Shown piece by piece: positions 1,006-39,595 of a stretch of DNA of 64,000 nucleotides. A program made the translations under genes and the position numbers. Below the pieces are notes generated by a model that saw nothing but the letters and a program-made list of their open reading frames with translations, made no database searches and had not been told where the DNA came from. Positions within the stretch are counted from its first letter, which is position 1. Every line of letters starts with the position of its first letter. Origin of the DNA: Escherichia phage 348Ecol098PP; sequence record OR062947.1, one strand, 5' to 3'.

Positions 1006-2739
1006 TTACCCAATATCAATACGAGATCCGTCAACAGTGTATTGTCCTGAAGCTACTGAGCTCATTGTAGACATTGTTTCTGCCCAATCCCCGGCAACAG
1101 TCATATCAACATTACCATTAACGGTCCATTTAACGTTTCCGTTGACAGTGTAATCATGATTCCCTTCGACCTGAGTTTTAGCATCACCTTTAACAAGAAT
1201 ATCTGCATTTCCGTCAACAACTATTTTGATATTACCCTTAACGTAAAGAGTTCCATCGCCTTCAACAGTTTTAGTTTGGTTACCACGAATAAAGATTGTG
1301 TCATTGCCGTCTATTTGATGGAGGCGGTCTGCCATGTTATAATATATTTCATTAGCACCAACGTTAACAAGCTTATCGCCAGAAATCAAGAAGTTCCCAT
1401 CGCCATTAGTGATGTCAAAAAGGTCTTCTACAGTTTTACGAGTACGACGCCCAGACGGAGAAACTTCCTCATATGACCCTGTTGGATGAACTAAGCGATA
1501 ACGTTCATTACCTGGAGTATCGTCAAATTCTTGGATATGACCACTTTCTGTTTCCATAGCATGAACGTATGGATACTCACCACGATAACTTGATTCCGGT
1601 TCTTTAAAAAGGATACGTGAATCTAATGGAACAGGAGGACCAGCCGGGTCTTCTGGATCGGTATTTCTAGTAACTAAATCAGCACCAACTCCTGGTGAAG
1701 GCGGTGTTTTAACAGGAACACCGTATGATTCCATGTTACCAGTTAAAATAATTGTTGTTACACGTGAAGCACGCCCTTTAGTCTGTTGGAACCATAATGA
1801 ATCGCGTCCAGATTTGTATGCAGTTTTCCAATCACCTGTGGCCATTGCTTTAAGCATAGTATTGAATTTTGCTACACCACCAACACCCATTTGGAAGCAC
1901 ATGTTTTCTAATGCCATTTGACGAGACCTGTTCATTTTAGCATAAACAGGACCTACTTTAGAATTAGAACGAATGTCTTTCTGCATCTTAGCAAGGTCTT
2001 TCTCAAATAACGCTGTTGCTTCTTCTAATGTAATAGTTCCGGGATTTCCTGTTACTTCACGCCCTACTTGATCGGATAACAATTTATTAATTCGAGACAT
2101 ATCTCGGGTCTTTTCCATTACGATAAGGTGTCCAATACCTACTGTAGGATATCCGAGATGGTCCCAATACACTTTATCACGAAGACCTTCGTCACGACGT
2201 AACATTTCTGTTATTGTAAAATTAGGGTCATCATCTTCTGGAATATTTGCTAAATCTGTATCATCTGGGTTTATACCATAATCCAAGTTGTTGTCTTGAA
2301 TTACGTTAGAGTTCGAATAATAACCAGCTTCACCACCTTGGTTTAATACGTTCGTATCATTACCTAAACGTCGTGGATACTGGCCTGTCGGGTCCGAAAA
2401 ACCTTCAAGTCTATTAGGCTTTTCACGTACGATTCCGCCGTATGTACCAAGTACGATCCCGTTTGTTTTCCATTTGTCTAAGAAATGACCATATACTCGA
2501 GTTCCTTCAACAGGACCTGTAACAGAACCACCAATACCTGACATTGATGCAGACGTAATAGGTTGAATAACAGTCATCCATGGAAGTTTTTCTGTAGGAA
2601 TACCCTGCACATCGCCTTGTACTCTCTGTGCGGGATGAAGTCCAACTACTCGCACTCGAACTCGCCCTTGTTTTAATGGGTCCATTCTGTCTTCGACAAC
2701 ACCCACGAACCAATTAAGGCTACTGCTAATCATTTCCAT
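1006..2739 (-). CDS. 5: baseplate hub / tail lysozyme gp5
   Basis: 577 aa; internal lysozyme domain (DEGLRDKVYWDHLGYPTVGIGHL) and C-terminal VxG beta-helix repeats. Confidence 0.95.
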   Translation of the reverse strand: MEMISSSLNWFVGVVEDRMDPLKQGRVRVRVVGLHPAQRVQGDVQGIPTEKLPWMTVIQPITSASMSGIGGSVTGPVEGTRVYGHFLDKWKTNGIVLGTYGGIVREKPNRLEGFSDPTGQYPRRLGNDTNVLNQGGEAGYYSNSNVIQDNNLDYGINPDDTDLANIPEDDDPNFTITEMLRRDEGLRDKVYWDHLGYPTVGIGHLIVMEKTRDMSRINKLLSDQVGREVTGNPGTITLEEATALFEKDLAKMQKDIRSNSKVGPVYAKMNRSRQMALENMCFQMGVGGVAKFNTMLKAMATGDWKTAYKSGRDSLWFQQTKGRASRVTTIILTGNMESYGVPVKTPPSPGVGADLVTRNTDPEDPAGPPVPLDSRILFKEPESSYRGEYPYVHAMETESGHIQEFDDTPGNERYRLVHPTGSYEEVSPSGRRTRKTVEDLFDITNGDGNFLISGDKLVNVGANEIYYNMADRLHQIDGNDTIFIRGNQTKTVEGDGTLYVKGNIKIVVDGNADILVKGDAKTQVEGNHDYTVNGNVKWTVNGNVDMTVAGDWAETMSTMSSVASGQYTVDGSRIDIG

Positions 2740-3314
2740 TATGCAATCTCCATCTCACGAATCAAATCTGTGATAAACGAGTTTATATCTTCTTTTGCAA
2801 CAATTTTTATTTTACGAAGTTTTTCATTATCTAATACTGCCGCTTCATAAGTATCTACTGCAGCTAAAGGTCCTTTATATTGCGGATACTTACGAGCTTC
2901 ATCACCTTTATCGTACCACACTAAAGGCTCGTCCGGATATGAAACCAAATTGTAAAATTTCTCACGATTTTCATTAATATGATAAAGAACTTGGTCGCCG
3001 CCCGCATTAGCATATTTCTGAATAGAAGCTTGATAAGCTGCTTCCTGAGATGTAATCCAACCATAATACGGATCATAGTTATCATTACACATCAAAAGGA
3101 CCCAGTATAATTGAGGGTTGCCATAAATTATGTTTGCTAGTTCTTCAGGACGCGGAGAGCCTTTAATATAATAAGAACGTAATCTATAATTGGCAGCAAC
3201 ACGTTTAAAGTACTCTTTATAGTTACGAAATATGTCTGTCATAGGAATAGTAGGTGCATTCTTATTAACTGTTTTAGCACTATATCCTATTGGGTCGAAG
3301 AATGTAAATAACAA
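2739..3314 (-). CDS. 53: baseplate wedge subunit gp53
   Basis: 191 aa; position upstream of gene 5, divergent from gene 4, as in T4. Confidence 0.8.
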   Translation of the reverse strand: MLFTFFDPIGYSAKTVNKNAPTIPMTDIFRNYKEYFKRVAANYRLRSYYIKGSPRPEELANIIYGNPQLYWVLLMCNDNYDPYYGWITSQEAAYQASIQKYANAGGDQVLYHINENREKFYNLVSYPDEPLVWYDKGDEARKYPQYKGPLAAVDTYEAAVLDNEKLRKIKIVAKEDINSFITDLIREMEIA

Positions 3315-3375: not shown

Positions 3376-3825
3376 ATGGCCTACTCTGGTAAATGGGTCC
3401 CAAAAAATTTAAAAAAATACCGTGGAGACCATACCAAAATAACGTATCGTTCAAACTGGGAAAAATTCTTTTTCGAATGGTTGGATAAAAATCCAGAAAT
3501 TATTGCATGGGGTAGTGAAACAGCAGTAATTCCATATTTTTGTAATGCTGAAGGTAAGAAACGTCGATACTATATGGACATATGGATGAAAGATGCATCA
3601 GGTCAAGAGTTTTTTGTAGAAATAAAACCAAAGAAAGAAACTCAACCACCTATTAAACCGGTGAATCTTACAACTGCGGCTAAGAAACGTTATATGAATG
3701 AAATATATACCTGGTCTGTGAACTGTGACAAATGGAAAGCTGCCTCAGCTGTTGCTGAAAAGAGAAATATAAAATTTCGAGTTCTAACCGAAGATGGTCT
3801 TAGAAAACTCGGATACAAGGGGTAA
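3376..3825 (+). CDS. 4: head completion protein gp4
   Basis: [42 protein letters not shown]...; SD AAGGAGG upstream; track ORF trimmed to this ATG. Confidence 0.85.
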
Positions 3826-3827
3826 TT

Positions 3828-4649
3828 ATGAGCATATTCCAAATTATATCTGAAGGCGTACAAGCCCCTAAGATTGCTCAGTCTATGAATGAAAGAAAAT
3901 GGATTGAGATAGGATTAGAATACAAGAAAGCTAAAGAGAAAGGAATCACTGCAAAAGCATTTGCAGAATCAAAAGGAATAAAATACTCGTCGTTTACATC
4001 TGCAATGTCTAGATATGCATCATCTATTAAGACTGCACAGAAAATTGAAACGCTTGAATCTAAACCTAAAAATAAACTCAATAAGCAAGAACGTCAACTT
4101 CTGATGATAAACTCGTTTCGCAGTTCAATACGAGAAAAGATTAGAAATGAAGGCGCAGCAGTAAACAACAAATCATCTAAGTGGTTTGTTGAAACAATTA
4201 AGAAAAGTGTAAAAGGTCATAAAGTAGTCAAGCCTACGCCAGGCAAAATTTATACTTACGTGTATGATGCTAAACATAAAGATACTCTACCGTATTGGGA
4301 CAGATATCCTTTGATTATTTATTTAGGATTAGGTAAACATAATTTGATGTACGGGTTAAACTTGCACTATATCCCACCTAAAGCACGTCAACAGTTTCTT
4401 GAAGAATTGCTGAAGCAATATGCTAGCACAACTACTATTACTAATAACACAAAGTTGAAGATAGACTGGAGCAAGGTGAAAGGATTTCAAGGTGCTGACA
4501 AAATGATTAAAGCATACCTGCCAGGCCACATTAGAGGAACAATAACAGAAATCGCTCCTAAAGACTGGGCCAACATAATCATGTTACCTACTCAGCAGTT
4601 TATGTCAAAAGGAAAACGTTTCTCTGCGAATACTGTTTGGAAATCTTAA
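3828..4649 (+). CDS. 2: DNA end protector protein gp2
   Basis: 273 aa; size and synteny (4-2-3-1). Confidence 0.8.
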
Positions 4650-4751
4650 TTCTATTCTCTTCCGTTCTTCTGATATTCTGTTGAACCAGATTAATGGAAG
4701 AGACCTAAAACCATTATACTGCATTTTTATTAAAGCGTTTTTGAGGTGCTT

Positions 4752-5336
4752 ATGACTCGTCCAGCGAGACAGATTTTTAACCAAACAAATATAACAAACT
4801 TTGTTGTGGATATCCCAGATAGTACACGAACTTCAGGTTTTGTGCTCAATGCCCAAACGGCTCCATTGCCAGGTGTGAGAATTCCTGTTGTTGAAACTGT
4901 GACAGGCACAATGGGGCTAGGACGTGCAATGCGTGCAGGCACCACATTTGAATATGACCCTTTTATTGTACGATTTATAGTTGATGAAGACATGACGTCC
5001 TGGATGAACATGTATAAATGGATGCTCAGCACTAATAATTATATAACCGGCCATAATACGGCCCACTCTGATGGTCCTGAGTTTGTTACTTTGCACATTT
5101 TAAACAACAATAAGACCGAAGTAGTTTTGACGGCAAATTTCTATAAACCATGGATTTCCGATTTGAGTGAAATTGAATTTAGTTACACTGAAGACTCTGA
5201 CCCTGCCGTTACTTGCGTAGCAACTATTCATTACGCGTATATGACGATAGAAAAAGATGGCGAAGTCATTGTATCTCAACAACCACGTCAAGCGGTCGAA
5301 TCTAAATCCATTTCTAGACACCCTTCCTTGCGTTAA
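4752..5336 (+). CDS. 3: tail completion / sheath stabilizer gp3
   Basis: Synteny between 2 and 1; first ATG (MTRPARQ...). Confidence 0.75.
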   Translation: MTRPARQIFNQTNITNFVVDIPDSTRTSGFVLNAQTAPLPGVRIPVVETVTGTMGLGRAMRAGTTFEYDPFIVRFIVDEDMTSWMNMYKWMLSTNNYITGHNTAHSDGPEFVTLHILNNNKTEVVLTANFYKPWISDLSEIEFSYTEDSDPAVTCVATIHYAYMTIEKDGEVIVSQQPRQAVESKSISRHPSLR

Positions 5337-5389
5337 TCGCTTCTAGCTCCGTATGTTATAATCACTCATAAATTATATGAGGAAAACCT

Positions 5390-6124
5390 ATGGAGCTAAT
5401 CTTTTTAAGTGGCATCAAACGTAGTGGTAAAGACACTACTGCTGATTACATCAATTCAAACTTTAAATCCGTAAAATACCAATTGGCATATCCGATTAAA
5501 GACGCTCTAGCAATAGCCTGGGGACGTAGGCATGCTGAAAACCCTGATGTATTCACAGAGTTGAAATACGAATACTTTGAAGGCATTGGATACGACCGTG
5601 AAACACCATTAAATCTCAATAAGTTGGATGTTATTGAATTATTGGAAGAAGCGCTAATTTATTTGCAAAGTCAATATTTACCAATTAATAATGTTAAAGT
5701 ATTATCATCGTTAGAAGGTGGATATTCGTATCTAGATATTAAACCATATGAAGCCCTGCGTGAAGCTATAAATAATATCAACGACACATGGTCAATCCGC
5801 CGTCTTATGCAAGCCCTCGGTACGGATGTTGTCGTTAATTTATTTGACCGTATGTATTGGGTTAAACTTTTTGCATTAAACTATATGGATTATATTGGAA
5901 GTGATTTCGATTACTATGTCGTAACCGATACACGTCAAGTCCATGAAATGGAAACCGCTAGAGCGATGGGTGCTACAGTTATTCATGTGGTTCGCTCTGG
6001 TACGGAATCCACCGATAAACATATTACAGAAGCTGGGTTGCCTATTGAAGAAGGCGATTTAGTTATTACAAACGACGGCTCTTTAGAAGAGCTTTATTCT
6101 AAAATTGAAACAATCTTAAGGTAA
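5390..6124 (+). CDS. 1: deoxynucleoside monophosphate kinase gp1
   Basis: 244 aa, N-terminal P-loop-like GIKRSGKDT; synteny. Confidence 0.8.
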   Translation: MELIFLSGIKRSGKDTTADYINSNFKSVKYQLAYPIKDALAIAWGRRHAENPDVFTELKYEYFEGIGYDRETPLNLNKLDVIELLEEALIYLQSQYLPINNVKVLSSLEGGYSYLDIKPYEALREAINNINDTWSIRRLMQALGTDVVVNLFDRMYWVKLFALNYMDYIGSDFDYYVVTDTRQVHEMETARAMGATVIHVVRSGTESTDKHITEAGLPIEEGDLVITNDGSLEELYSKIETILR

Positions 6125-6128
6125 TAAA

Positions 6129-6814
<686 letters not shown>

Positions 6815-34830: not shown

Positions 34831-34879
34831 GAACCTTCAATAAATGAATTAATTGATATGGAAATGGGAAGAGATTATT

Positions 34880-35050
34880 ATGCAAGTTAAATTATTATAC
34901 CGTTTATTAAAAAATGGCAAGCATGATTGGTATTTGCTTATTAAAACCGATCCGAATTTTTTCTCTGGACAACCATTTACAGTTCGTCCTACTAAACGTC
35001 AGCTTCGCAAAGCTAAACGTTCTCATCGAGACTTTTATAACGTTTACTAA
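34880..35050 (+). CDS. small basic protein
   Basis: SD gggaagag before ATG. Confidence 0.45.
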   Translation: MQVKLLYRLLKNGKHDWYLLIKTDPNFFSGQPFTVRPTKRQLRKAKRSHRDFYNVY

Positions 35051-35052
35051 AT

Positions 35053-35060
35053 TATAAATA
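35053..35060 (+). promoter_or_regulatory. late promoter TATAAATA for gene 49
   Basis: Exact TATAAATA 30 nt before gene 49 ATG, next to a hairpin that can pair with the SD region. Confidence 0.55.
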
Positions 35061-35089
35061 CCCTTATCTATTTAAGGTAAGGGTTTATC

Positions 35090-35563
35090 ATGTTATTATC
35101 AGGCGCAAAATATAAAGAAGAAAAACAAAAATTTTATGATGCACAGAATGGTAAGTGTCCTATTTGCCACCGTGAATTAGACCCTGATGTTCAAGGTAAC
35201 CATCTTGACCACGACCATGAATTAAACGGGCCAAAAGCAGGTAGAGTTCGTGGGTTACTCTGTAATCTGTGCAATGCAGCAGAAGGTCAAATGAAGCATA
35301 AGTTCAACCGTTCCGGTCTTAAAAGACGTGATGTCGACTACCTCGAATGGCTTGAAGCTCTTCTTGCTTATTTGAAACAAGATTATTCTGATAATAATAT
35401 CCATCCTAATTTTGTTCCAGACAAAACTAAAGAGTTCTCAAGACTAGGTAAAGAGGAAATGATGTCCGAGATGCTTCAAAGAGGATTTGAATATAATGAA
35501 TCTGATACCAAAACACAATTAATAGCTTCATTCAAAAAGCAGCTTAGAAAGAGTTTAAAATGA
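35090..35563 (+). CDS. 49: endonuclease VII (Holliday junction resolvase) gp49
   Basis: 157 aa; CxxC...HLDHDHELNGPKAG...CNLCN zinc/H-N-H-like motifs; recalled T4 gp49. Confidence 0.9.
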   Translation: MLLSGAKYKEEKQKFYDAQNGKCPICHRELDPDVQGNHLDHDHELNGPKAGRVRGLLCNLCNAAEGQMKHKFNRSGLKRRDVDYLEWLEALLAYLKQDYSDNNIHPNFVPDKTKEFSRLGKEEMMSEMLQRGFEYNESDTKTQLIASFKKQLRKSLK

Positions 35564-36381
35564 ATGTAGTATATAAACTATCATTTATTAATAGAATTAA
35601 TGCTAAAACCCCACCATATTATTACATTGGAAGTAAAACCAATTGCACTTTTGATGGAACGAATATTATTGATAAAAATGGTAAATTTTATTATTCGTCT
35701 TCGTCATCTTCCGAATTTCAAAAAGCCTTATTGAAAGAAACGCCGAAAGTTGAAATATTATATTTTCAATTAGTCGGAGATGAACAAATAACTAGCATTG
35801 AAGCTGAATTTCAAAAGAATATAGAAAAAGATGTATGGAATAAAGAGTATTTTAATTTAGCATATGCTGATGGCAAATTTACGACATATGGTATTTCTCC
35901 TTCTAAAGAAACTAGAGAAAAACAATCAATAACCATGATTAAAAGAAATCGTAATAAAGGCAAAAATCATGGATTTTATGGAAAGCATCATACTAATTTA
36001 GCCAGAAAGAAAATATCAGAAGCTTCTAAAAAATACTGGAAAGAAAATCCGCATCGTGGATTTTCGCATACAAAGGAAGCTAAAATTAAAATTGGAATTT
36101 CATCTTCTATCAGGCATAAAGGAAGTGGAAATCCGATGTATGGTGTAAAACCTTGGAAAACTCCGAACGCAATTAAATCTGGTACTTGTATATTATGGTT
36201 AAAATACGCAGAAATTTTATATGATTATTTAGGTCCAGATTTTAAAAGTAAATCATCTATTTTTGCGGATTTAAACTTACCGAAATTTAGAATTGATAAT
36301 TTCATCAAAAGGTTTAAAATGGGTTGGAACCCATATTTAGACGAAGAATTTCAAAAGGATAAATTAGAATTATGTCTTTAG
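35560..36381 (+). CDS. GIY-YIG homing endonuclease (Seg / I-TevI-like) with NUMOD3-like repeats
   Basis: VYKLSFINRIN...YYYIGSKTN GIY-YIG motif; repeated GxxHxxExKxKIS motifs; strongly AT-rich. Confidence 0.75.
   Translation: MNVVYKLSFINRINAKTPPYYYIGSKTNCTFDGTNIIDKNGKFYYSSSSSSEFQKALLKETPKVEILYFQLVGDEQITSIEAEFQKNIEKDVWNKEYFNLAYADGKFTTYGISPSKETREKQSITMIKRNRNKGKNHGFYGKHHTNLARKKISEASKKYWKENPHRGFSHTKEAKIKIGISSSIRHKGSGNPMYGVKPWKTPNAIKSGTCILWLKYAEILYDYLGPDFKSKSSIFADLNLPKFRIDNFIKRFKMGWNPYLDEEFQKDKLELCL
35560..36381 (+). mobile_element. free-standing homing endonuclease gene between gene 49 and nrdD
   Basis: Same as CDS; composition differs from flanking genes. Confidence 0.6.
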
Positions 36382-38189
36382 AGAAAGATGTTTTAAATTT
36401 TATTTCAAATAAAGATAAAGAATTAAATACCGAAAACGCCAACAAAGATTCTCGTGTCTTTCCAACAAAAAGAGATTTAATGGCCGGTATTGTTTCTAAA
36501 CATATCGCTTGTCGTATTCTTCCAAGTCATATTGTAAATGCCCATAATGTTGGATTAATTCATTTTCATGATTTAGATTACAGTATATCATTGCCTTTTA
36601 CTAATTGCTGTTTAGTAGATTTAAAAGGAATGCTTGAGAATGGATTTAAATTAGGCAATGCTCAAATTGAAACGCCTAAATCGATTGGTGTTGCTACTGC
36701 AATTATGGCACAAATTACTGCACAAGTTGCTTCTCACCAGTATGGCGGAACTACATTTGCGAATGTAGATAAAGTACTTTCTCCTTATGTTAAACGCACA
36801 TATGCAAAACATATTGAGGATGCAGAAAAATGGCAAATCGCTGATGCGTTGAATTATGCTCAATCTAAAACAGAAAAAGATGTCTATGACGCATTTCAAG
36901 CTTATGAGTATGAAGTAAATACTCTCTTTAGTTCAAACGGACAAACGCCTTTTGTAACAATTACATTTGGTACGGGAACTGACTGGACTGAACGAATGAT
37001 TCAGAAAGCAATTTTGAAAAATCGTATTAAAGGTCTTGGTCGTGATGGGATAACTCCTATTTTCCCTAAGCTTGTTATGTTCGTTGAAGAAGGTGTTAAT
37101 CTTTATAAAGATGATCCGAACTATGATATTAAACAGCTTGCTCTAGAGTGCGCAAGCAAAAGAATGTATCCTGACATTATTTCGGTTAAGAATAATAAAG
37201 CTATTATCGGTTCTTCAGTTCCTGTTTCTCCAATGGGCTGCCGTAGTTTCTTGAGTGTATGGAAAGATTCGACTGGCAATGAAATTCTTGATGGACGTAA
37301 TAATCTTGGTGTTGTAACACTGAATCTTCCTCGTATCGCATTAGATTCTTATATTGGAACCCAGTTCAATGAACAGAAATTTGTTGAATTATTCAATGAA
37401 CGAATGGATTTATGTTTTGAAGCATTGATGTGCAGAATTAGTTCCTTAAAAGGAGTTAAAGCGACTGTTGCTCCTATTCTTTACCAAGAAGGTGCATTCG
37501 GGGTTCGTCTTAAACCTGATGACGATATAATTGAGTTATTTAAAAACGGTAGAAGTTCAGTGTCTTTGGGATACATTGGTATTCACGAATTGAATATTCT
37601 TGTCGGTCGTGATATTGGACAAGAAATTTTAACTAAAATGAATGCTCATCTTAAACAGTGGACTGAAAGAACCGGATTTGCTTTTAGTTTATATTCTACT
37701 CCTGCTGAAAACCTTTGTTATCGCTTCTGTAAACTTGATACAGAAAAATATGGAAGCGTAAAAGATGTTACCGATAAAGGTTGGTACACTAACAGTTTCC
37801 ACGTTTCAGTAGAAGAAAATATTACTCCGTTTGAAAAGATTTCTCGTGAAGCGCCGTATCATTTCATTGCGACAGGCGGTCACATTTCTTATGTTGAACT
37901 TCCAGATATGAAAAACAATTTAAAGGGACTTGAGGCTGTCTGGGATTATGCTGCACAACATTTAGATTATTTTGGTGTTAATATGCCAGTAGATAAATGT
38001 TTTACATGCGGAAGTACCCATGAAATGACTCCTACTGAAAACGGATTTGTTTGTTCAGTTTGCGGAGAAACTGATCCTAAAAAGATGAACACCATAAGAA
38101 GAACATGCGGTTATTTGGGAAATCCGAACGAACGCGGATTTAATCTCGGTAAAAATAAAGAAATCATGCATAGGGTTAAACACCAATGA
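36372..38189 (+). CDS. nrdD: anaerobic ribonucleoside-triphosphate reductase NrdD
   Basis: 605 aa; C-terminal glycyl radical motif RTCGYLG and Zn-Cys cluster; uninterrupted. Confidence 0.9.
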   Translation: MSLEKDVLNFISNKDKELNTENANKDSRVFPTKRDLMAGIVSKHIACRILPSHIVNAHNVGLIHFHDLDYSISLPFTNCCLVDLKGMLENGFKLGNAQIETPKSIGVATAIMAQITAQVASHQYGGTTFANVDKVLSPYVKRTYAKHIEDAEKWQIADALNYAQSKTEKDVYDAFQAYEYEVNTLFSSNGQTPFVTITFGTGTDWTERMIQKAILKNRIKGLGRDGITPIFPKLVMFVEEGVNLYKDDPNYDIKQLALECASKRMYPDIISVKNNKAIIGSSVPVSPMGCRSFLSVWKDSTGNEILDGRNNLGVVTLNLPRIALDSYIGTQFNEQKFVELFNERMDLCFEALMCRISSLKGVKATVAPILYQEGAFGVRLKPDDDIIELFKNGRSSVSLGYIGIHELNILVGRDIGQEILTKMNAHLKQWTERTGFAFSLYSTPAENLCYRFCKLDTEKYGSVKDVTDKGWYTNSFHVSVEENITPFEKISREAPYHFIATGGHISYVELPDMKNNLKGLEAVWDYAAQHLDYFGVNMPVDKCFTCGSTHEMTPTENGFVCSVCGETDPKKMNTIRRTCGYLGNPNERGFNLGKNKEIMHRVKHQ

Positions 38190-38988: not shown

Positions 38989-39306
38989 ATGATTAGTTTT
39001 GAGCGGTATGTGGTAGAGAGTTGGAAAGGTTTTGATATGTTCGGTAATGACTATTATTTCTATGAATGTAGTCTAAATCCTAGTTTTTGGGCTGGACGTG
39101 AACGAGATTTCGAAGAAATTAATGCTCGTGCCGAATTGTTAGGTGAACTGCCTACGGTTTATTTTACCTTTGATGAATCTGGATTTGTTATCCAGGTTTA
39201 TTTTCCTGAAGAAAACTCCGGTGAGGATTCTGTTAATCCTCCTTATTGGGCTTACCAAGGAATTATTTCTCGTGGAACAAAACTCGAACTTAAAGAACAA
39301 GATTGA
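38989..39306 (+). CDS. hypothetical protein
   Basis: 105-aa ORF. Confidence 0.55.
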   Translation: MISFERYVVESWKGFDMFGNDYYFYECSLNPSFWAGRERDFEEINARAELLGELPTVYFTFDESGFVIQVYFPEENSGEDSVNPPYWAYQGIISRGTKLELKEQD

Positions 39307-39595
39307 AATTTATGGCATCCCTGAAGAAGTAGGACGTTGTCCGGGATGTTATACTGTTACAAAACTTTTAAAGGAGCTCAATGCTCCTTATACATTTTAT
39401 AAAGTCCTCACTAATAATGGTAAGATTGAATATGACCGTCCTTTAATCGTATCTCTTGCTAAACGTGCAGGATTCACTTCACTTAATATTCGTTATCCTG
39501 TCATATTTTTAAATGATAAGAAACAAAAGAATATTGCAGAGTTTAAAAAGTCCTTGATTTCATTAGGATATGACTCTGATATCATAGAAGATTGA
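39302..39595 (+). CDS. glutaredoxin-like protein (NrdH-like); start codon uncertain
   Basis: KIEIYGIPEEVGRCPGCYTVTKLL redox CPGC motif; no in-frame ATG after upstream stop, ATT at 39302. Confidence 0.5.
   Translation: MEIYGIPEEVGRCPGCYTVTKLLKELNAPYTFYKVLTNNGKIEYDRPLIVSLAKRAGFTSLNIRYPVIFLNDKKQKNIAEFKKSLISLGYDSDIIED

Follow-up and report, generated by a model that had tools for sequence, protein, structure and literature searches.

The 64,000-nucleotide (nt) stretch of Escherichia phage 348Ecol098PP examined here (sequence record OR062947.1, one strand, 5' to 3'; hereafter the window) carries between gene 49 and nrdD an open reading frame (ORF), referred to below as seg, which probably encodes a functional free-standing homing endonuclease of the Seg type that spreads by homing of a whole cassette. 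This is the explanation that best accounts for the evidence as a whole, and within it catalysis, the position of the cut and the immunity of carriers are the parts that we infer. The encoded protein is a paralogue of T4 SegG, near-identical copies of the gene are found in diverged phage backgrounds, and these copies are accompanied by a diverged segment of nrdD.

The seg gene and its insertion site

A reading made from the letters alone (the sequence-only reading) had proposed a strongly AT-rich, free-standing endonuclease gene lying between gene 49 and nrdD, overlapping both neighbours and inserted into a conserved gene order, and each of these points was borne out. The ORFs concerned are the following.

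35560..36381, + strand: seg-like homing endonuclease ORF, ATG start, 273 amino acids; match to PHROG 7504 'homing endonuclease' (1e-33)
35090..35563, + strand: gene 49 (endonuclease VII), left flank, from Pfam hits; its last ~60 nt form the left homology arm
36372..38189, + strand: nrdD (anaerobic ribonucleotide reductase large subunit), Pfam NRDD (PF13597, 5.5e-171); no interruption in the window

The start codon of seg (ATG, 35560-35562) overlaps the stop codon of gene 49 (TGA, 35561-35563) in the shared sequence ATGA, and its own stop codon (TAG, 36379-36381) lies 10 nt within the nrdD ORF, which starts at 36372. The GC content of the seg ORF and its edges is 0.26-0.31 vs 0.35-0.40 in the flanks. 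The upstream ORF was identified as gene 49 by Pfam matches to Endonuclease_7 (5.5e-20) and to the T4 EndoVII dimerisation domain (1.1e-31), nrdG is next after nrdD, and the wider order nrdC, 49.x genes, 49, nrdD, nrdG is that of T4. Between 34000 and 39000 no intron-like RNA was detected beyond one chance-level match to an intron family, as would be expected of a free-standing gene.

In T4, gene 49 and nrdD overlap directly at ATGA, and the window has the same sequence up to ATGA and then diverges. A query with the T4 junction matched 753 records, 695 of them contiguous or nearly contiguous, a number that includes some carriers since the search tool bridges the 812-nt insert when it assembles a match; the records with an uninterrupted 49-nrdD junction thus number roughly 650-700. 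The full seg gene was found in 48 phage records, always between gene 49 and nrdD and at 96.5-100% nucleotide identity, while one further record, that of phage FL18, holds a truncated copy. Carriers amount to ~6% of related phages and belong to the genera Mosigvirus and Tequatrovirus. Among 44 loci with gp49 found in IMG/VR across the Tevenvirinae, 22, of widely differing divergence, have nrdD directly, beginning at the gene 49 stop; seg is present in two, and in the other 20 no nrdD lies within 3 kb. A scan of IMG/VR with the seg protein gave two loci, and a metagenome scan with a two-sequence profile added just one near-identical locus. The comparison with relatives lacking the insert, which the sequence-only reading had proposed as a check, was thus carried out, and the gene is not universally present. 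In many GenBank and RefSeq records it is already labelled 'homing endonuclease'.

Identity of the encoded protein

Three regions are distinguished in the predicted protein.

35560..35874, + strand: N-terminal nuclease domain of the SegG-type GIY-YIG class, residues 1-~105, with Y5 (GIY), Y22/G24 (YIG), E81 and N99
35896..36147, + strand: linker with two NUMOD3 DNA-binding motifs, residues ~113-196, from Pfam, best stretch residues 130-153
36148..36378, + strand: SegG-type C-terminal domain (PWKT...W...F..GW.P..D.E), from alignment with SegG

The N-terminus contains the motif MNVVYKL...PPYYYIGSK, in which V4-Y5-K6 and Y22-I23-G24 match GIY and YIG. Among characterised proteins T4 SegG is the nearest relative, sharing 40% identity over residues 1-126 (128 columns; tblastn and BLASTP) at a pairwise E value of 4e-27. 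The C-terminal ~75 residues are homologous to the SegG C-terminus, as judged from a four-way alignment of the seg protein, T4 SegG, P0004 and P0002, the latter being the closest non-identical homologue (58% identity; contig L061, Logan SRR27536177, positions 1718-3300). In this alignment P198, W199, W213, F252, G255, W256, P258, D261 and E263 are invariant, and a 63-residue insertion (residues ~134-196, within the NUMOD3 linker) is absent from T4 SegG. The linker scored 29.7 bits against NUMOD3 (PF07460; gathering cut-off 20.4, E 6.3e-7) in two stretches.

Agreement with the GIY-YIG family was found at several levels. In an alignment of 32 sequences including PF01541-positive proteins, Y22, G24 and E81 are nearly invariant and N99 is invariant, and hhalign places E81 and N99 opposite the Glu and Asn of canonical GIY-YIG members. 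In I-TevI the canonical arginine, glutamate and asparagine are R27, E75 and N90. A profile-profile comparison of SegG-like with canonical GIY-YIG N-termini gave an E value of 7.5e-5 with the motifs in register. The AlphaFold model, built on the 32-sequence alignment, has the GIY-YIG fold, with strands at residues 2-8 and 21-26 and a predicted local distance difference test (pLDDT) score of 95-98 over the first 100 residues. The C-terminal domain was modelled poorly (pLDDT 31-65) and matched no Pfam family; it is presumed to be a target-specific DNA-binding module. Other searches were less informative: NCBIfam returned just a sub-threshold match to 'group I intron endonuclease' (22 bits vs a cut-off of 56), the PDB sequence search one match at chance level, Foldseek against PDB nothing below E 1, and PADLOC no match to a defence system.

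On these grounds we conclude that the protein is a SegG-type GIY-YIG enzyme, a paralogue of SegG and a predicted nuclease. The GIY-YIG motif, the NUMOD3-like repeats and the Seg-like character put forward by the sequence-only reading therefore stand: the letters of the motif are there, although their assignment comes from SegG homology, the aligned residues, the model and the profile comparison and not from Pfam; PF07460 is matched above its gathering score in two stretches; and kinship with Seg enzymes is seen in both the N-terminal identity and the shared C-terminal domain.

A paralogue, P0003, is encoded at positions 4001-4822 of L062 (ENA contig ERZ13617658), between gene 5 and a 5.1-like gene; its nuclease domain is 56% identical to that of seg over the N-terminal half and its C-terminal half is unrelated. 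This suggests, from sequence comparison, that the nuclease domain may be reused with different DNA-binding modules at other loci.

Recent transfer and purifying selection

That seg is a mobile gene, as had been claimed, is supported by the occurrence of near-identical copies in diverged backgrounds and by conflicting trees. Phage Lutter is 80.9% identical to the window in gene 49 and 98.8% in seg; in phage JK42 the corresponding values are 97.9% and 96.8%. Across 12 seg+ loci, synonymous diversity was 0.064 in seg and 0.11 in nrdD nt 1-225, vs 0.41 in gene 49 and 0.30 in nrdD nt 226-540, so that the diversity of the cassette is 4-6 times below that of its flanks. In neighbour-joining (NJ) trees gene 49 forms two clean types, and the cassette tree mixes both types in at least two clades. 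The low diversity of seg and the conflict between the cassette and gene 49 trees point to recent moves between backgrounds.

In the same 12 carriers the ratio of nonsynonymous to synonymous polymorphism (pN/pS) of seg was 0.16, a value that holds for the full length of the ORF, nuclease domain included, and in 46 of the 48 records the reading frame is intact. This pattern argues for purifying selection and a conserved function. The gene would thus have moved more than once between diverged backgrounds while staying intact.

The linked nrdD segment and the edges of the cassette

Two features of nrdD bear on the extent of the mobile unit.

36372..36595, + strand: seg-linked foreign nrdD 5' allele, codons 1-74, from identity tables and megablast
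36594..36629, + strand: ultra-conserved nrdD stretch encoding PFTNCCLVDLKG; alignment columns from 225 onward are near-invariant in all lineages

The carriers compared are 98-100% identical to the window over ~35500-36600, a region made up of seg and the first ~225 nt of nrdD, as measured by sliding identity. On the left, the end of gene 49 (35500-35599) is 92-100% identical in every phage compared, and the remainder of gene 49 tracks phage genus. On the right, identity of seg-less phages to the window falls to 80% in 36400-36499 and 57% in 36500-36599. The nrdD tract is 96-100% identical among seg+ phages of both genera and 62-64% identical to each seg-less lineage examined, whereas those lineages are 69-76% identical among themselves. 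Its distance to Proteus-phage-type nrdD is about equal, with 60-65% to all sampled lineages. No donor lineage was identified for the tract, the best non-carrier database matches (~75%) being Klebsiella phages, and megablast with the tract returned 49 records, namely the 48 carriers and OLB35, a seg-deleted derivative. The final carrier-specific differences fall in nrdD codons 71-74, immediately before the near-invariant stretch encoding PFTNCCLVDLKG.

These comparisons support a mobile cassette that would consist of seg and its own diverged nrdD nt 1-224, with the conserved end of gene 49 on one side and the PFTNCC stretch on the other. Judging from the alignments, the cassette would end on the right at this stretch, where the right homology arm would begin. 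In an IMG/VR locus (L042, UViG_2706796082, 3468-6245) a 925-amino-acid nrdD ORF has an intein with LAGLIDADG-like motifs at PFTN|CC, which places it in the conserved stretch where the window's seg cassette ends.

The metagenomic contig L061, which encodes P0002 and represents a distant T4-like background, has a Proteus-phage-like gene 49 followed by a 55-codon fragment of resident-type nrdD, the seg orthologue, apparently frameshifted, and a full nrdD. The first 74 residues of the latter are 61% identical to the window tract vs 51-54% to other lineages, and the remainder is closest to Proteus-type nrdD. This layout places the integration in nrdD nt ~165-~225 and would result from a break there, if repaired by a cassette with its own nrdD 5' end. 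The window lineage is without a leftover nrdD fragment, its left junction being at ATGA. Taken together, L061 and the positions of the boundaries suggest that seg-less alleles would be cut near nrdD codons ~55-75; the counterpart of this region in the window tract, codons ~55-74, lies at 36537-36595.

It can be hypothesized from this that the mobile unit has two parts, seg and a strongly recoded or foreign set of nrdD codons 1-74 that acts as built-in immunity, with the cut at seg-less codons ~55-75 beside PFTNCC, a proposal to which we give slightly less than an even chance. If it holds, the 5' end of nrdD would be a hot spot for multiple elements, where nrdD is remodelled or lost when seg, the I-TevII intron, the nrdD/nrdG endonucleases and the intein of Proteus-type relatives collide, FL18 being an example. 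Phages G8 (L004/L007), fPS-2, Manna and F26 are seg carriers in which nrdD is also interrupted, by ~1 kb after ~codon 180; the I-TevII intron of T4 occupies this position, and two endonuclease elements thus lie within ~550 bp of each other.

Decay products

Several records hold altered forms of the locus; together with the degenerate orthologue in L061, these three kinds of decayed copy lend support to a cassette of seg and the nrdD 5' end and suggest the cut region named above. In OLB35 (L060, MH992122.1, an 'UNVERIFIED' record; 2480-2710) seg was lost through an 812-nt deletion that preserved the ATG offset and fused the first ~22 nt (~7 codons) of seg in frame to nrdD nt ~27, and the linked tract and a full-length nrdD are retained; it is an endonuclease-less allele and probably resistant to the enzyme. 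In Pu-Krd-SF3 and Pu-Krd-SF4 (L054, PQ759884.1, 2501-3323) a 1-nt insertion cuts seg to 245 codons, which from the sequence would be an early stage of decay. In FL18 (L049, PP400780.1, 3001-4492) nt 605 of seg is joined to the last ~15 codons of nrdD, so that nrdD is gone, and a canonical GIY-YIG gene (276 amino acids) comes next, at the nrdD/nrdG junction, followed by nrdG; this arrangement looks like a deletion between two endonuclease genes.

Expression signals

The left junction is letter-for-letter T4-like through ...AAAATGA. Since it is identical to T4 up to ATGA, seg uses the ATG and the Shine-Dalgarno sequence from which nrdD is translated in T4. For nrdD the window has a new Shine-Dalgarno sequence, AAGGA, at 36355-36359, within the 3' end of the seg ORF, and in phage 55 a ribosome-binding site is annotated at the equivalent position. 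No excess of promoter-like sites above chance was detected around seg (13 sites vs 8.8+/-3.2 in shuffles), and no terminators were found there. One possible signal lies further upstream.

35053..35060, + strand: T4-type late promoter consensus TATAAATA, exact match, ~30 nt 5' of gene 49

The window has 8 matches to this consensus vs 7.15 expected by chance, which makes the motif weak by itself; the match at 35053..35060 is plausible because it is positioned ahead of gene 49. Late transcripts running across gene 49, seg and nrdD may start from it.

A hairpin over the seg AUG (35560-35588), pairing the AUG region with downstream sequence, was considered and discarded, its z score of -1.7 vs shuffles not being significant. 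An endpoint of the OLB35 deletion falls within it.

Under the proposed mode of expression, seg, which has no promoter of its own, would share a transcript with gene 49 and nrdD, and its translation would begin in the region where seg-less phages initiate nrdD, probably by coupling to gene 49 termination at the ATGA overlap. The 3' end of seg would in turn provide nrdD with a replacement ribosome-binding site.

Proposed mechanism and alternative explanations

When a carrier and a related seg-less phage infect the same cell, the enzyme would cut the seg-less nrdD allele, most likely in codons ~55-75, just 5' of the PFTNCC-coding stretch. Repair off the seg+ genome would copy the whole cassette into the recipient, and carriers would be protected from cleavage by their own enzyme through the diverged nrdD segment.

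A number of points weigh against this explanation. A literature search found no biochemical or genetic cleavage test for the seg protein. The protein gave no match to the Pfam GIY-YIG model (PF01541) even at E<=1; T4 SegG likewise has none and is listed as active (PMC2988022), which indicates that the model does not cover the SegG-like subgroup, and the missing match was set aside as an argument against GIY-YIG given that the fold and profile comparisons agree with that family. The canonical arginine of the first helix is without an aligned counterpart, the SegG-like group having Y-x-[SG]-S there; R12 is conserved within this group and might stand in for it. The NJ trees are based on few substitutions and were built with no bootstrap. 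L061 is one short contig from an automated assembly, and both its frameshift and its duplicated nrdD fragment are read from that assembly alone. Finally, the strict linkage of the tract does not by itself locate the cut, because a block of 57-80% identity cannot recombine internally and the linkage would arise wherever the cut falls.

The alternative that survives best accepts the enzyme and differs from homing as the main explanation in consequence rather than in mechanism. It holds that the main role of seg is competitive or adaptive for the phage, either by excluding the nrdD-region markers of co-infecting relatives or by promoting local recombination or amplification as with SegB. Marker exclusion is a known phenotype of SegF and SegG (PMC2988022), SegB is reported to drive the segmental amplification of anti-defence genes, including gp49.2 in the same neighbourhood (PMC13096335), and the loss of nrdD between two homing endonuclease genes in FL18 shows that the locus is recombinogenic. 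Still, neither amplification nor a cargo gene within the cassette was seen at any locus examined, the PADLOC search was negative, and we regard this as a somewhat unlikely account of the main role of seg.

According to a second alternative, the same endonuclease has the uninterrupted 49/nrdD junction as its recognition site and makes its cut no more than a few tens of bp away; insertion destroys the site, and the tract is baggage from the donor instead of immunity. The insertion is exact at the shared ATGA, so that carriers no longer have a continuous junction sequence; the final ~60 nt of gene 49, which vary little across all relatives, would be well suited as a target; intron-encoded GIY-YIG enzymes cut near their own insertion point; and missing internal homology would be enough to explain the linkage of the tract. 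This alternative accounts less well for L061, where the cassette follows resident nrdD codon 55 and does not lie at the junction, in better agreement with a break inside nrdD, and for the characterised free-standing T4 enzymes, which cut away from their own genes (PMC2988022). The divergence of the tract, 62-64% to sampled lineages vs 69-76% between genera, also exceeds simple ancestry from a sampled relative. A cut at the junction is therefore considered unlikely, and a cut inside nrdD is preferred.

It is very improbable that seg is a stranded or catalytically dead remnant kept for the ribosome-binding site and translation start of nrdD, or a co-opted DNA-binding regulator: the missing PF01541 match, the unaligned arginine, the nrdD Shine-Dalgarno sequence inside the ORF and the decay seen in Pu-Krd-SF3/SF4 (frameshift), FL18 (truncation) and OLB35 (deletion) would agree with it, but pN/pS is 0.16 over the whole ORF, nuclease domain included, with Y5, Y22, G24, E81 and N99 kept, T4 SegG shares the same sequence peculiarities, fails Pfam and is yet listed as active (PMC2988022 Table 1), near-identical copies in diverged backgrounds require recent transfer, and OLB35 lost seg cleanly with nrdD intact, meaning that its retention is not forced.

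Variation in the neighbourhood of the locus

In the window the pin (protease inhibitor) gene is missing upstream of gene 49, the gap at 34853-35090 holding just a 65-codon ORF; pin is directly upstream of gene 49 in T4, phage 55, AV112 and Lutter and is also missing in AV115, JM17 and FL18. In phage PD112 (L057, 5130-5440) a gap of ~310 nt separates nrdD from the annotated nrdG, whereas in other carriers these genes overlap. A group of IMG/VR phages of ~170.5 kb (L012-L016 and L019) has no nrdD/nrdG after gene 49, and the next ORFs resemble the window genes at 38989-39595; the anaerobic reductase operon thus seems to be naturally absent in some relatives, which fits the dispensability of nrdD.

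Significance and comparison with known systems

In the searchable literature no name or assay was found for a seg gene at the 49/nrdD junction. The element is a Seg paralogue and an insertion site new to the intron-less homing system of T4, of a kind that is well known, and for T4 specialists the finding is unsurprising; its value lies in the full allelic series and in a testable prediction of cut site and immunity. At this one locus public genomes hold every stage of the homing cycle, from empty sites through intact carriers in two genera to frameshifted copies, a clean deletion of seg with the tract kept, a deletion removing nrdD and a degenerate orthologue with a leftover fragment of its target. 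The locus offers a natural case for how endonuclease cassettes move segments of target genes between phage genera. Two consequences concern annotation: the Pfam GIY-YIG model misses the whole SegG-like subgroup, and the 'SegG' label in phage JK42 is a name carried over from a paralogue and not that of an orthologue, hence a paralogue mix-up.

The free-standing endonucleases of T4 that have been characterised cleave hundreds of bp away from their own genes and co-convert the flanks, and many of them are promoter-less cassettes overlapping the preceding ORF, an arrangement described for segC, segF, segG and several mob genes (PMC2988022). SegF and SegG in particular combine intron-less homing with a distant cleavage site, co-conversion of flanks and marker exclusion (PMC2988022), and by analogy the seg element at 49/nrdD probably works in the same way. 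The closest parallel is T4 SegG (gene 32.1, between genes 59 and 32), a free-standing enzyme that is entered in Table 1 of PMC2988022 as active and targeting gene 32. Both proteins have a nuclease domain at the N-terminus, 40% identical, both miss PF01541 and both possess the PWKT...GWxPxxDxE domain at the C-terminus; both genes are free-standing, promoter-less and co-oriented with their neighbours, and both adjoin a conserved DNA-metabolism gene whose regulatory signals lie inside the endonuclease ORF (PMC2988022). They differ in locus (59/32 vs 49/nrdD), in target (gene 32 vs presumably nrdD) and in the extra 63 residues with two NUMOD3 motifs, which belong to seg and are absent from SegG.

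Other endonuclease elements occupy the same anaerobic reductase operon, among them SegH/mobC at the nrdD/nrdG junction and I-TevII in the nrdD intron (PMC2988022). SegH/mobC is set apart by its position at the 3' end of nrdD, seg lying 5' of this gene, and the nrdD/nrdG endonuclease of FL18, which co-occurs with seg in that phage, differs in being of the canonical, profile-recognised GIY-YIG subtype. Unlike I-TevI of the T4 td intron, seg is not in an intron and has neither a zinc finger nor an aligned canonical arginine, and its cut is expected far from the insertion site. The arrangement in L061, where an endonuclease gene is lodged in nrdD with a 55-codon fragment upstream, recalls mobE of Aeh1 and other endonuclease 'transposition' events by which a reductase gene was split or partly duplicated (PMC2988022, PMC3045599), but in L061 the downstream nrdD is complete and the cassette brings its own 5' end.

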